Translations under genes and position numbers: made by a program | Shown here: piece by piece, positions 3,248-8,102 of the stretch | Position numbering within the stretch: the stretch's first letter is position 1 | Layout: each line of letters begins with the position of its first letter | From: Thermoplasmata archaeon | GTDB taxonomy: Archaea > Thermoplasmatota > Thermoplasmata > Lutacidiplasmatales > UBA184 | DNA length: 31,344 nt | NCBI GenBank assembly: GCA_050013635.1 | Contig: JBEKEW010000003.1 | Coordinates: 1-31,344 of the forward strand | Reading direction: 5' to 3' | The notes under the pieces: model-generated | Told to the model about the DNA's origin: nothing | Databases searched by the model: none | The model's input: the letters and a program-made list of their open reading frames with translations, nothing else

Positions 3248-4453
3248 ATGAGCGAACCGGACTCCTCCGCACCCCCGCATGATGCGTTCGACCGAGTGAA
3301 CTTCCTCGAACTGAGGAACACCCAGCTCGCCGAGGCGATCAAACGCGTCGAGAGCGAACGGCACTACATGGAGTCGGAGATCCTCCGGCTCCAGCGGGAG
3401 GTCAAGCGGATGAAGACGGAGCTGGACCGGCTCCGATACCCTCCGCTCATCGTCGGCAGCGTGCGGGACGTTCTCACCGACGGCCGCGTGATCGTCAAGT
3501 CGTCGACCGGACCGGACTTCGTTGTCAACGCAGCGGAGACGGTCGAGCACACGAAGATGACGATCGGGAGCCGGGTCGCCCTCAACAAGCAGACCCTCGC
3601 GGTCATGGGGGTCCTACCGGCCTCCCTCGACCCGATCGTGACCGCGAGCGAGATCGTCGACAAGCCCAGCGTCACCTACGAGGATATCGGAGGACTCTCC
3701 GATCAGATCCGCGAGATCCGGGAAGCGGTGGAGTACCCGCTGCTGCGCTCGGAGCTGTACAAGCGAGTGGGCGTCGATCCCCCGAAGGGCGTGCTCCTGA
3801 TCGGATCCCCCGGCACGGGGAAGACGATGATCGCGAAAGCGGTCGCCCACCACACGAACGCGACGTTCGTTCGACTGGTCGGTAGCGAGCTCGTTCAGAA
3901 GTACATCGGGGAGGGGGCCCGTCTCGTGCGGGAGCTGTTCCAGATGGCCCGAGAGAAGGCCCCGACGATCATCTTCATCGACGAGGTCGACTCGATCGGG
4001 GCCAAGCGCCTCGAGGTCGCGACCAGCGGGGACCGCGAGGTCCAGCGCACCCTGATGCAGCTGCTGGCCGAGATGGACGGGTTCGAGCCGCTCTCGAACG
4101 TCAAGATCATCGCGGCGACCAACCGGCCGGACATCCTGGACGAAGCCCTCCTGCGGCCCGGCCGATTCGACCGGATCATCGAGGTGCCCATTCCCGCGGC
4201 CGGCGGGCGTGCCGAGATCTTCAAGATCCATTCGCGCCCGATGACGATGCACGAGCCGATCGATTTCGAGGTGCTCGCCGCCCGATGCGAGGGCGCCACC
4301 GGGGCCGACATCAAGGCGATTTGCACCGAGGCCGGGATGTGGGCGATCCGCGAAGAGCGGGACCAGGTGACCGCGGTCGACTTCGACCGGGCGATCGAGA
4401 AGGTCATCGGGGAAGAGGAACTCCGCAAGGAGTCCGTCACGATGTTCGCCTAA
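3248..4453 (+). CDS. pan: Proteasome-activating nucleotidase (AAA+)
   Basis: N-terminal coiled coil, OB domain (PPLIVG), Walker A GSPGTGKT, ELVQKYIGEGAR, Walker B IIFIDE, LLRPGRFDR, C-terminal MFA. Start moved to ATG3248 (401 aa). Confidence 0.97.
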   Translation: MSEPDSSAPPHDAFDRVNFLELRNTQLAEAIKRVESERHYMESEILRLQREVKRMKTELDRLRYPPLIVGSVRDVLTDGRVIVKSSTGPDFVVNAAETVEHTKMTIGSRVALNKQTLAVMGVLPASLDPIVTASEIVDKPSVTYEDIGGLSDQIREIREAVEYPLLRSELYKRVGVDPPKGVLLIGSPGTGKTMIAKAVAHHTNATFVRLVGSELVQKYIGEGARLVRELFQMAREKAPTIIFIDEVDSIGAKRLEVATSGDREVQRTLMQLLAEMDGFEPLSNVKIIAATNRPDILDEALLRPGRFDRIIEVPIPAAGGRAEIFKIHSRPMTMHEPIDFEVLAARCEGATGADIKAICTEAGMWAIREERDQVTAVDFDRAIEKVIGEEELRKESVTMFA

Positions 4454-5487
4454 GGGCGGACCGACGATCGGATCTCCGACTCCGCCGGCGCGGGTTCTAG
4501 GGCGGTCCGTCCTGGAGCGCGACCCGGGCCGCGATCCGCGGACCGGTGGTCGTCGAGAGGTCGAGCACGTAGGGCCGCGATCCGCGGACCGGTGGTCGTC
4601 GAGAGGTCGAGCACGTATCCCGGCTGTCCGGGGCGGAAGACGACCGGCCGGTCGGCGGTGAACCGGACGCTCTGTGCATCGCGCGGCCCGACCGATACCG
4701 GGACGACCTGCAGCCCGATGGCGAGATGCATCTGGGCCCCCTCGCCCCACGCGGACCGGTGGTATCGGCACGGGAAGAGCGCGGACCCGTTCAACGAGGC
4801 GGACGCGTGCAGCGCCCCTTCCGGAGCGAGGATCTGCCCGCGCGCGAGCTCGTCGGGATCGACCCCCTTCAGCGCGACGCCGACCCGATCGCCGTTCGAT
4901 GCGTGGGTGACCTCCACGTCGTGGACCTGGATCGACCGGATCTCGACGATCTTCGGGGTCGGCCACAGTCGGAGCTTGTCATGCGCATGGAGCGTCCCCG
5001 CCCGTACCACGCCCAGGGCGACCGCCCCGACCCCCTTGACCGGGAACGCGTGATCGATCGGAACCGTGACCGGGCCGTCGCCCGGGCGGGGAAGCCAGGC
5101 ATCGACGAGCTGGCGGAGCGCGGGGTAGTCGAGCGGTTGCTCCGGCGCCGTCTCGAGCCGGGTCCCCTTGAGGAGGCGGGCGACCTCCTCCGCGCCCACG
5201 CTCGGGCCCAACACGATCGTCGTCGGGACGTCGTAGAGGTCGGCCACGGCGATCGTCTCGGCGATCGGACGCGAGAGTTGATCGATCACCAATAGGCAGC
5301 GGTCGGCCATCCCGAGGGCGATGAGGAGCGGAGGGAGCTTTTCGGGAAAGTTGGTCGGTTCCACGCACGTGATCGCGTGACCTTCGGTCACGAGGTTGTA
5401 CAGCGTGACGTCCGATCCCGTCCCCTTCTTCCCGAACTCCTTCGCGACGTCTCGGGCCCCGATGGTCGCGATCGTGACCGCCGGCAT
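4450..5487 (-). CDS. Archaeal SelB-like elongation-factor family protein (aSelBL), degenerate G-domain; C-terminus altered by a tandem duplication
   Basis: Start ATG5487 with GGAGGT RBS (5491-5496). N-terminal EFGKKGTGSDVTLY without a canonical GTPase P-loop; EF-Tu domain II motifs IDHAFPVKGVGAVALGVV, IRSIQVHD, GDRVGVALKG, RGQIL. Confidence 0.85.
   Translation of the reverse strand: MPAVTIATIGARDVAKEFGKKGTGSDVTLYNLVTEGHAITCVEPTNFPEKLPPLLIALGMADRCLLVIDQLSRPIAETIAVADLYDVPTTIVLGPSVGAEEVARLLKGTRLETAPEQPLDYPALRQLVDAWLPRPGDGPVTVPIDHAFPVKGVGAVALGVVRAGTLHAHDKLRLWPTPKIVEIRSIQVHDVEVTHASNGDRVGVALKGVDPDELARGQILAPEGALHASASLNGSALFPCRYHRSAWGEGAQMHLAIGLQVVPVSVGPRDAQSVRFTADRPVVFRPGQPGYVLDLSTTTGPRIAALRARPLDDHRSADRGPGRAPGRTALEPAPAESEIRSSVRP
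4526..4617. repeat. Perfect 2 x 46-bp tandem duplication
   Basis: GGGCCGCGATCCGCGGACCGGTGGTCGTCGAGAGGTCGAGCACGTA at 4526-4571 and 4572-4617. Confidence 0.97.
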
Positions 5488-5495: not shown

Positions 5496-8102
5496 CTAAC
5501 GAGATCCCCCCGACCGAGGGTGGGACGGCCGCAGGACGATCTCCGACCCCTCCGCGTCGACCGTGACATCGGTGCCCTCCCGCAGCTCGCCGGAGAGGAT
5601 CCTCTCCGTGAGCGGATCGACCACCCGCCGCTGGATCGTCCGCTTGAGGGGCCGGGCTCCGAACGTGGGGTCGAAGCCGGTGTGCGCCAGGAACTTCTTC
5701 GCGTTCGCCGTAACCTTCAGGGTGATGCGACGATCCTTCAGGCGCGCTTCGACCTGGGCGATCTGAAGGCCGACGATCTCGGCGATCTCTTTCTCGGAGA
5801 GCGCGTGGAAGATCACGACCTCGTCCAGGCGGTTCAGGAACTCGGGGCGGAAGTGCTCCCGCAGCGCGGGCTCGATCAACGCCCGACGGGCCGCGTCGGA
5901 CGTCGTCTCGGCGAGGAGCTCCGAACCGAGATTGCTGGTCATGATGACGAGGGTGTTGCGGAAATCGACCGTCCGTCCCTGTCCGTCCGTCAGGCGTCCA
6001 TCGTCCATCAGCTGCAGGAGGACATTGACGACGTCCGAATGCGCCTTCTCGATCTCGTCGAATAGGATCACCGTGTACGGGTGGCTGCGCACCGCCTCGG
6101 TCAGCTGGCCACCCTCCTCGTACCCGACGTAGCCGGGGGGAGCCCCGATCAACCGGGCGACGGTGTGCTTCTCCATGTACTCGCTCATGTCGATGCGCAC
6201 GAGCGCACGTTCGGAATGGAATAGGAACAGGGCGAGCGCCTTGGCCAGTTCGGTCTTGCCGACGCCGGTCGGGCCCACGAAGAGGAAGGTACCCATCGGG
6301 CGGTTCGGGTCGGCGAGCCCGCTCCGCGCCCGTCGAACGGCCTTGGAGACCGCCTCCACCGCCTCTTCCTGACCGACGACGCGCTGGCGGAGCTCCTCTT
6401 CCATGTGGAGGAGGCGCTGCGTCTCCCCTTCGAGCATCCGGCTGATCGGGATGCCGCTCCACTTCGAGATCACATACGCCACGTCCTCCTCGTTGACCTC
6501 TTCGCGCAGGAGGCCCCCGGCGGCGGGGGTCTCGATCTCCGCGGTAAGCACCTCGACCTTCCTCTGCAGGTCGGGGATCGTTCCGTAGCGCAGCCGTGCG
6601 GCGGCCTCGAGATCGCCGGTGCGCTCCGCGACCTCCTCGGCGGCCTTCGCCCGGTCGACCTCCGCGCGCAACTTGCGCAACCCCTCGACGCGTTCGCGTT
6701 CGTGCTTCCATCGGGCCTGGAGCGCCGTCTCGGATTCCTTCAGGTTCGCGAGCTCCTTGTCGAGTTTCGAGAGACGGTCCCGGGACGCCGGGTCCTTCTC
6801 CCGCTTGAGCGCCGCCCGCTCGATTTCCAGCTGGCGAACGCGCCGGGTCAGCTGATCGAGCTCGCTCGGTCGGGAATCGAGCGCCAGGCGAACCATGGAC
6901 GCCGCTTCGTCCACCGCGTCGATCGCCTTGTCGGGCAGGCGTCGGTCCGGGATGTACCGCGCCGTCAGGGTCGCGGCGGCGACCAAGGCCGCATCGTGGA
7001 TCTTCACGCCGTGGTGGAGCTCGTAGCGTTCCCGAAGCCCGCGCAGGATCGAGATCGAGTCCTCGACGGTAGGCTCCCGGATCGGTACCGGCTGGAACCG
7101 TCGCTCCAGGGCGGCGTCCTTCTCGACGTACTTGCGGTACTCTTGGGTGGTGGTGGCACCGATGCAGTGGAGCACCCCGCGGGCGAGCGCGGGCTTGAGG
7201 AGGTTCGACGCATCGAGCGCTCCGCCCTCCGTCGCACCGGCATGGACGACCGTGTGGAGTTCGTCGATGAACAGGATCACCCGGCCCTCGGATCGCTCGA
7301 CCTCCTGGAGGACCGCTTTCAACCGCTCCTCGAACTCGCCCCGGAACTTGGCCCCGGCCAGAAGGCTGCCGAGATCGAGCGCGATGACCCGCCGCTCGTG
7401 GAGCGATTCGGGCACGTCGTTCTGGGCGATCCGCAGCGCGAGCCCTTCGACGACCGCGGTCTTGCCGACCCCGGGATCCCCGACCAGGACCGGGTTGTTC
7501 TTCGTGCGCCGGGAAAGGATCTGGATGACGCGCCGGATCTCTTCGTCGCGGCCGATTACCGGATCGAGCTTGCGCGAGCGGGCGAGCGCCGTCAGGTCTC
7601 GGCCATACTTCTCCAGGGCCTGGTATTGAGCCTCTTCCGACCGGCTCGCGACCGGATGATCGGCCCCCCGGATCCCTTGGAGCGCCGCCTCGACGCCCGC
7701 CCGGTGGACCCCGGCCTCCTCGAGGATCTGCCGCGCGGGGGAAGCGACGGAGAGGATTCCGAGAAGGAGCTGGTCGACGCTCGTGTATCGGTCTTTGCGC
7801 TTCGCGGCCTCCGCCTCGGCCGCATCGATCACCTGCGATAGCGAGCGCGACAGGTACTGATCGGACGGAGCCACGTGGTCGGCCGTGGGCAGCGTCTTCA
7901 GTCGTTCGGCCACGCGCGCACGAACGGGGTCGATCGAGGCATGGACCGCCTGCAGAAGGGCGGCGGTGGGGCCCTGCGGGGCCTCCAGCAAGGCCGCGAG
8001 CAGGTGTTCGGGTTCGACCGCCGCGTGCCGAAGCTCGGAGGCGCGCCGGAACGCGGCCTCCAACGCTTCGCGCGCGGCGTCGGTGAGGCGATCGAGGTGC
8101 AT
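5496..8102 (-). CDS. clpB: Bacterial-type Hsp100 disaggregase ClpB (868 aa)
   Basis: Clp N-domain, [17 protein letters not shown]1 [28 protein letters not shown], coiled-coil M-domain, NBD2 [23 protein letters not shown]; no IGF/L ClpP-docking loop seen. Start ATG8102 (MHLDRLT). Confidence 0.97.

Follow-up and report, generated by a model that had tools for sequence, protein, structure and literature searches.

A tightly spaced clpB-aSelBL gene pair conserved in one family of Thermoplasmata and its probable expression as a bicistronic operon

Introduction

Why would an archaeon place the gene of the ClpB disaggregase immediately ahead of the gene of a SelB-like factor devoid of GTPase motifs? 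The question is raised by the stretch of 31,344 nucleotides analysed here (the window), contig C3 of a metagenome-assembled Thermoplasmata genome of 1.47 Mb and 83% completeness. The window has a G+C content of 68%, and its interval 4450-8102 is occupied by two minus-strand genes, clpB followed by a gene of the aSelBL family. An earlier note on this DNA had described the two as a tightly coupled operon, and had proposed that the pairing connects translation with protein quality control.

The aSelBL family has been described as the sole paralogue by which archaea enlarged their ancestral set of translational GTPases (PMC4342817). According to a survey published in 2011, its gene contexts are mostly unconserved, with hemH found in Picrophilus and Ferroplasma, and ClpB is mentioned nowhere in that survey (PMC3037878). 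The Methanosarcina mazei member MM1309 ('EF-Pyl') binds GTP, is devoid of GTPase activity and shields Cys-tRNACys against deacylation (PMC4329189), and for this reason the description of aSelBL in the earlier note as a family of unknown function is slightly outdated.

In this work, we examined the clpB-aSelBL junction, its distribution across the phylum, the putative promoters of both genes and the features of the encoded proteins. Taken as a whole, the explanation that we consider fairly probable is a bicistronic clpB-aSelBL operon with a single origin in the family of the source genome, through which the aminoacyl-tRNA binding of aSelBL would rise and fall with ClpB. Both gene families were already known; the novelty lies in their lineage-specific operon arrangement and in the possible regulatory hint that it offers on an orphan factor.

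Results

Conservation and origin of the clpB-aSelBL junction

On the minus strand, the sequence of the junction is TAGGAGGTTCCATG, with the aSelBL ATG at 5487-5485, 8 nt from the clpB stop. The layout described in the earlier note, a TAG codon (5496-5498) abutting GGAGGT with the ATG 8 nt further on, can thus be read directly from the sequence. In the linked loci examined, which belong to five genera, the gap between stop and start ranges from -4 to +30 nt, genome G093 being the exception; because the gap stays within these limits across five genera, the tightness of the junction cannot be put down to chance in the source genome. Many orthologous junctions overlap as ATGA or GTGA, and these overlaps, together with the frequent absence of a Shine-Dalgarno sequence, point to translation of aSelBL by termination-reinitiation at many junctions.

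The neighbourhood survey was carried out on 24 relatives from the genus of the source genome (g1), an order-wide draw of 151 genomes, and 301 genomes of the phylum, each at least 80% complete. Within genus g1, clpB lies directly upstream of aSelBL wherever both genes share a contig. In the order-wide draw the two genes are adjacent in five genera of the window's family (g1, g16, g18, g19 and g20), which rules out a linkage confined to g1 and shows that other genomes share the pairing. Across the linked genera, identity falls to 42% for aSelBL and to 65% for ClpB. The pair also occurs in g19, where the flanking gene of the proteasome-activating nucleotidase (PAN) has been lost. In two further genera the genes are unlinked: clpB is still beside pyrD in g15, with aSelBL elsewhere, and the block is split in g17, with pyrD-clpB and PAN-aSelBL on separate contigs.

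In a maximum-likelihood tree of aSelBL, the window's family (f1) is monophyletic (100/99) and linked forms occur in both of its sub-clades, while the unlinked g15 and g17 sequences group in a nested clade (89/77), the sister of the linked g18 and g19. Given this distribution, the simplest history would comprise one origin of the linkage at the base of family f1 and one later split. Two independent breaks of the linkage were also considered, and the tree favours a single one, in the g15 and g17 clade, with moderate support (89/77).

Two genomes deserve separate mention. G044, labelled as g15, contains a second aSelBL gene (L057, contig C45) that is linked to clpB and almost identical to that of the g19 genome G075 (L044), with branch lengths of 0.004 and 0.012; given this near-identity, it was set aside as a g15 case and attributed to probable bin contamination. 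In G093 (genus g20), the DNA between clpB and aSelBL (L042:4068-5012) carries a same-strand open reading frame (ORF) of 314 aa with CxxC...CxxC zinc-ribbon-like motifs and no Pfam match.

The pair belongs to a larger syntenic block of 15 kb, conserved as a whole in family f1, which comprises the genes of a universal stress protein, L10e, a GHMP kinase, PAN, aSelBL, ClpB, pyrD, a pyrK-like protein, CTP synthase, a class-II aminoacyl-tRNA synthetase (aaRS) and MCM. Since the whole block is syntenic, the adjacency is not independent evidence genome by genome.

Outside family f1, the two genes co-occur without linkage in three families (f3, f31 and f34). Family f3 has both genes on different contigs, and family f2 and the ten class-level families sampled possess aSelBL and lack ClpB. 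Within the phylum, ClpB was detected in 16 of the 301 genomes (f1, 5/5; f34, 7/15; f31, 3/38), and aSelBL is present in 9 of the 10 ClpB-bearing genomes of f34 and f31, always on another contig, although the separation is less certain in one case, with aSelBL 134 nt from a contig end. Most lineages of Thermoplasmatota with aSelBL have no ClpB. A recurrent neighbour of aSelBL was sought in ten genomes of other families and none was found; the genes beside it there encode a PLD/LTD protein, an S26-like peptidase, an AMP-binding enzyme, ThiN/ThiD, a VTT-domain protein, AAA_14 and small unnamed ORFs. Likewise, a search for fused ClpB-aSelBL proteins among longer proteins retrieved one bacterial SelB only, which is a weak negative.

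Putative promoters of clpB and aSelBL

The start codons of clpB and of the divergent gene pyrD are 55 nt apart (spacer 8103-8157), and the spacer holds a TTAAAT box at a distance of 26 nt to the ATG of clpB and of 23 nt to the GTG of pyrD. Among the orthologous pyrD/clpB spacers, 21 of 23 have a length of 53-59 nt and a central TTAAAT, TTATAT, ATATAT or CATATA, and, in a scan of 18 linked loci, 17 have their most AT-rich 8-mer beginning at -29 to -34 relative to the clpB start. The central box is also present in the pyrD/clpB spacers of three unlinked loci (L052, L054 and L056). Because the TATA-like box sits about 30 nt upstream of the ATG, the arrangement fits a leaderless clpB mRNA whose transcription would start at or just before the start codon; the spacer is possibly a bidirectional promoter giving two leaderless mRNAs.

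A search of the 150 nt preceding the linked aSelBL genes found no conserved AT-rich 8-mer (at least 7 A/T), whereas the unlinked genes (L051, L053, L055 and L058) have an AT-rich box 25-35 nt before the start in four of four cases, for example ATTAATTAAAT in L053 and L055. Since the linked aSelBL genes show no conserved box of their own, the unlinked ones have one, and the clpB box is fixed, co-transcription of clpB and aSelBL is likely, and the linked aSelBL appears to depend on the clpB promoter. These sequence features, along with the conserved gap, speak for the tightly coupled operon proposed in the earlier note; a separate aSelBL start, which that note regarded as contrary to its proposal, finds no promoter-like box upstream of the linked genes.

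The unlinked aSelBL genes of genus g15 have a further neighbour, as a divergent tRNA-Asp(GUC) gene lies just upstream of them (L058:8493-8565; L053:9220-9330; L055:9572-9640). In L053 the 3' half of this gene appears to be set apart by about 31 nt within the T-loop region, an arrangement suggestive of a non-canonical intron. L058 is the sole locus in which ARAGORN calls tRNA-Asp(GUC), with an odd 3' end there.

Features of the aSelBL protein

A Pfam search with aSelBL yielded EF-Tu domain 2 as the sole match. The motifs GxxxxGK[ST] and NKxD are absent from the window protein, whose disrupted G motifs read ...IGARDVAKEFGKKGTGSD...VEPTNFPEK...LVIDQL. In a sequence search of the PDB (phmmer), the best match was MM1309 (3WNB/C/D; E 9e-27, 24% identity), followed by aSelB (3.6e-21) and aEF1A (2e-15). 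An exhaustive search of 1.8 billion cluster representatives retrieved 109 clusters at E < 1e-30, nearly all of 300-320 aa. An alignment of 75 sequences of the family contains neither a Walker A column nor NKxD, and displays conservation of GKKGTxSD, PxxYPEK, an invariant Asp145 mostly followed by His, Arg201 and Arg302; K20 is nearly invariant and P44 and P48 are conserved. In the columns of the aminoacyl pocket, D145 is accompanied by H146 in 46 and R201 in 72 of the 75 sequences.

The AlphaFold2 model of aSelBL (pLDDT 96.8) consists of three domains that end at residue 311, and the C-terminal, SECIS-related domain IV of SelB is absent from the 314-aa protein. Foldseek placed 3WNB first (TM 0.86), then aSelB (4AC9) and the closed forms of EF-Tu; the TM values were about 0.8 for GTP-type closed EF-Tu and about 0.49 for the GDP-type open form, and thus aSelBL is modelled in the tRNA-binding conformation. 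By sequence and model, the downstream gene is identified as an aSelBL of the 'divergent' clade, closer to aSelBL/SelB than to EF1A/EF-Tu, in agreement with the earlier note, which had recognized an aSelBL without GTPase motifs.

That note had also reported no selenocysteine genes in the window, and the same holds at the genome level: in the source genome and four relatives, SelD scored 54-74 bits against a cut-off of 125, and two EF-Tu-like matches only, aSelBL and an EF1A-like protein, were found per genome. On these grounds, a selenocysteine role of aSelBL is excluded as far as it can be tested from sequence.

The window protein shares several traits with the divergent-clade aSelBL of Thermoplasma, Picrophilus and Ferroplasma, namely three EF-Tu-like domains without the SelB C-terminal domain, a deleted P-loop, KGT at G2, E/DP at G3 without the catalytic His, no NKxD, a conserved Asp-His plus Arg aminoacyl pocket, and a host genome without a selenocysteine system (PMC3037878); the difference is its position as the distal cistron of a putative clpB operon. 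With MM1309 (3WNB/3WNC/3WND; PMC4329189), its best match in sequence and fold, it has the closed conformation and the GKKGTxSD motif in common; however, MM1309 has a P-loop (with Arg for Lys) and binds GTP, and the G-like domain of the window protein lacks a P-loop and is shorter by about 33 residues. Compared with archaeal SelB (Methanococcus maripaludis, 4AC9), from whose duplication the aSelBL family originated, the fold of domains I-III is the same, but domain IV and the GTPase motifs are missing and no SelD scores above the cut-off. Judging from its sequence, the G-like domain can hardly bind or hydrolyse GTP. Since this domain is shortened and lacks the P-loop, the activity of the protein, by analogy with MM1309, is most likely the nucleotide-independent binding and protection of aminoacyl-tRNA.

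A 46-bp duplication and the C-terminus of aSelBL

Tandem Repeats Finder detected, within the aSelBL gene, a 46-bp unit present in 2.0 copies with 100% matches. As 46 is not a multiple of three, the frame shifts after residue 305, in the final beta-strand of domain III (residues 303-311 of the model), which garbles the last nine native codons and adds 40 foreign residues, giving 345 aa. When one copy was deleted in silico, aSelBL became a protein of 314 aa ending in ...RIAARVALQDGPP, with its stop codon TAG at 4500-4498. This product is identical to P0003 of a public protein collection, whose gene lies on two independent metagenome contigs from JGI (L060 and L061); these are 99.9% identical to the window DNA over 2.6-3.0 kb and carry one 46-bp copy each. 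Because both contigs have a single copy, the native protein is taken to have 314 residues and not 345, and the 314-aa form is the common allele whether the duplication is an assembly error or a strain variant. Of the gene bounds given in the earlier note, the aSelBL start thus stands and the 3' end at 4450 is a product of the duplication.

The duplication could also be genuine in the source strain, in which case aSelBL would be damaged, its last domain III strand being replaced from residue 306 by the 40-residue tail. The repeat is perfect, is internal to a 31-kb contig and bears no evident signature of an assembler k-mer size, all of which would agree with a real event; nevertheless, the two independent contigs with one copy, the length of 311-326 aa in all 120 homologues among the matches listed, and the lack of later mutations, which makes the duplication either very recent or artificial, leave this reading rather unlikely in our assessment. 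An assembly error or a minority variant is more likely than a normal population allele. In consequence, the annotated 345-aa protein of the source assembly is wrong or atypical, and the 314-aa form is the one to be used in experiments.

In other genomes assembled in few contigs, matches to aSelBL or ClpB are split over two frames (L037:10729-11621 in G007, and contigs G013:C6, G109:C7, G153:C1 and G148:C7). These look like indel errors of long-read assembly rather than true pseudogenes.

Features of the ClpB protein

ClpB matches the TIGR03346 equivalog (NCBIfam) with 1254 bits against a cut-off of 1232, over residues 6-857 of 868, and its Pfam matches are Clp_N, AAA_lid_9, AAA_2 and ClpB_D2-small. 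The protein is full-length, with N-domain, NBD1, middle domain, NBD2 and D2-small, and both Walker A motifs are present (GDPGVGKT and GPTGVGKT). The M1 column is invariant in 22 aligned orthologues. DnaK (HSP70) scores above the cut-off in the source genome (contig C92 of G000) and in four relatives. The system thus resembles the bacterial-type ClpB/DnaK bi-chaperone system in its full-length ClpB, with N-domain, two AAA+ modules and middle domain, and in the presence of DnaK, and differs from it in the archaeal host, in the putative archaeal TATA-box promoter, and in a Phe for the usual Tyr in pore loop 1. In bacterial ClpB, a substrate-gripping Tyr is usual at this position; the NBD1 pore loop 1 of the window protein (7344-7352, residues 251-253, AGAKFRGEF) holds Phe253, which is invariant in 22 of 22 aligned Thermoplasmata orthologues.

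Discussion

The preferred explanation proposes a bicistronic operon with a single origin at the root of one Thermoplasmata family. One TATA box, common to clpB and the divergent pyrD, would direct transcription from the clpB ATG or a few bases ahead of it and give a leaderless mRNA; aSelBL, apparently without a promoter of its own, would be translated right after the clpB stop by re-initiation or by Shine-Dalgarno-guided initiation. The predicted product adopts the three-domain fold of EF-Tu/SelB in its closed, tRNA-binding state, with a shortened G-like domain and an aminoacyl pocket formed by Asp145, His146 and Arg201, and would bind and protect aminoacyl-tRNA independently of nucleotide, after the example of MM1309. 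The operon would tie aSelBL activity to the level of ClpB, presumably under heat or proteotoxic stress, and contact between the two proteins would not be required.

Several observations weigh against this explanation. A weak internal promoter inside clpB may exist; the spacing of 4 nt between GGAGG and the ATG in the window is below the usual one, and many orthologous junctions are devoid of any Shine-Dalgarno sequence. The pair has been split once (g15 and g17) and is interrupted by a 1.1-kb insertion in G093, and the synteny of the whole block implies that the adjacency may owe its persistence to a gene order that is conserved in general, and not to selection for co-expression. In addition, tRNA binding is extrapolated from MM1309, a 'conservative' member that still binds GTP.

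A closer partnership, along the lines of the earlier note, would have aSelBL act as a ClpB adaptor or as a bridge from the handling of ribosomes, aminoacyl-tRNA or peptidyl-tRNA to disaggregation, so that both proteins serve one pathway. It is in line with such a partnership that the translationally coupled junction has been kept in five genera over a divergence that brings aSelBL down to 42% identity, that g19 retains the pair despite the loss of the PAN flank, and that aSelBL preserves the residues for tRNA and aminoacyl binding. However, the linkage originated once and has been broken in g15 and g17, which retain both genes; families f3, f31 and f34 carry the two genes on different contigs; f2 and the ten class-level families have aSelBL and no ClpB, the latter being restricted to the few genomes of the phylum counted above; no conserved neighbour of aSelBL emerges in other families, as in the 2011 survey (PMC3037878); and the missing fusion protein adds weak evidence in the same direction. 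A complex prediction for ClpB residues 1-545 with aSelBL gave a score of 0.00, which counts neither for nor against binding. The proposed link or adaptor role is thus not supported, and we regard a common pathway as improbable. The same low probability is assigned to the more specific idea that a nucleotide-free aSelBL was recruited into the heat-shock response, where it would shield aminoacyl-tRNAs or the peptidyl-tRNAs of stalled ribosomes, whose esters are heat-labile, alongside or directly with ClpB; if true, this would constitute the first physiological role for a family that has been an orphan for 15 years.

Outside a direct partnership, most of the probability falls to co-expression, whether adaptive or not, and the neutral form of it is a possibility of some weight, although clearly behind the preferred one. 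Under neutrality, a rearrangement in the ancestor of the family placed aSelBL behind clpB, itself probably acquired by transfer given its patchy distribution; read-through then replaced the aSelBL promoter, and the stable order of the block preserved an arrangement that is not adaptive. The synteny of the whole block and the patchiness of ClpB in the phylum agree with this, the split lineage simply regained its own AT-rich box, and one genome tolerates a 314-aa ORF between the two genes. Yet overlapping or very short junctions (ATGA-type, -4 nt) were kept across genera, beyond the need of mere adjacency, and the g19 loci keep the pair and lose the PAN flank. Returning to the bicistronic operon with regulatory meaning, a conserved and translationally coupled arrangement with a stress chaperone offers a testable hint of stress-linked handling of aminoacyl-tRNA, a hint of little weight alone because it rests on a single evolutionary event.

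Other features of the locus

The coordinates of the features are collected in Table 1. PAN was considered as a member of the operon and ruled out by its convergent, opposite-strand orientation. It is indeed a neighbour in the window, as the earlier note had pointed out in relating the pair to protein quality control; it is not beside aSelBL in g19 or outside family f1.

Table 1. Coordinates of the clpB-aSelBL locus and its flanking features in the window
Feature	Position	Strand	Description
PAN (proteasome-activating nucleotidase)	3125..4453	+	TIGR01242, 574 bits, cut-off 500; convergent
aSelBL as assembled	4450..5487	-	345 aa: 1-305 native, 306-345 frameshifted tail; native stop TAG 4500-4498
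Tandem duplication	4526..4617 (4526-4571 / 4572-4617)		Tandem Repeats Finder: 46-bp unit, 2.0 copies, 100% matches
Junction	5488..5498	-	clpB stop TAG 5498-5496; GGAGGT 5496-5491 overlapping the stop; then 8-nt spacer to aSelBL ATG
clpB	5496..8102	-	868 aa, first cistron; TIGR03346 and Pfam matches
TATA box TTAAAT	8129..8134		8134-8129 on the clpB strand; sole AT-rich element of the spacer; putatively common to clpB and pyrD
pyrD (dihydroorotate dehydrogenase)	8158..9078	+	PF01180, E 1e-69; divergent from clpB

Downstream of pyrD, which in the orthologues starts with GTG or ATG at one and the same alignment position, lie the pyrK-like, CTP synthase and class-II aaRS genes. On the other side, the gene of the universal stress protein (Usp; 1231-1704) is located 1.4 kb past PAN within the same conserved block. 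The stress-related genes of Usp, PAN and ClpB are therefore loosely clustered, clpB alone among them being co-oriented with aSelBL.

Finally, a long minus-strand ORF occupies positions 24358-27828 of the window, with a stop-to-stop frame of 1156 aa and a weak PKD-domain match alone. Its first-position G+C is unusually low, at 0.53 compared with 0.60-0.79 in the window's other candidate ORFs.

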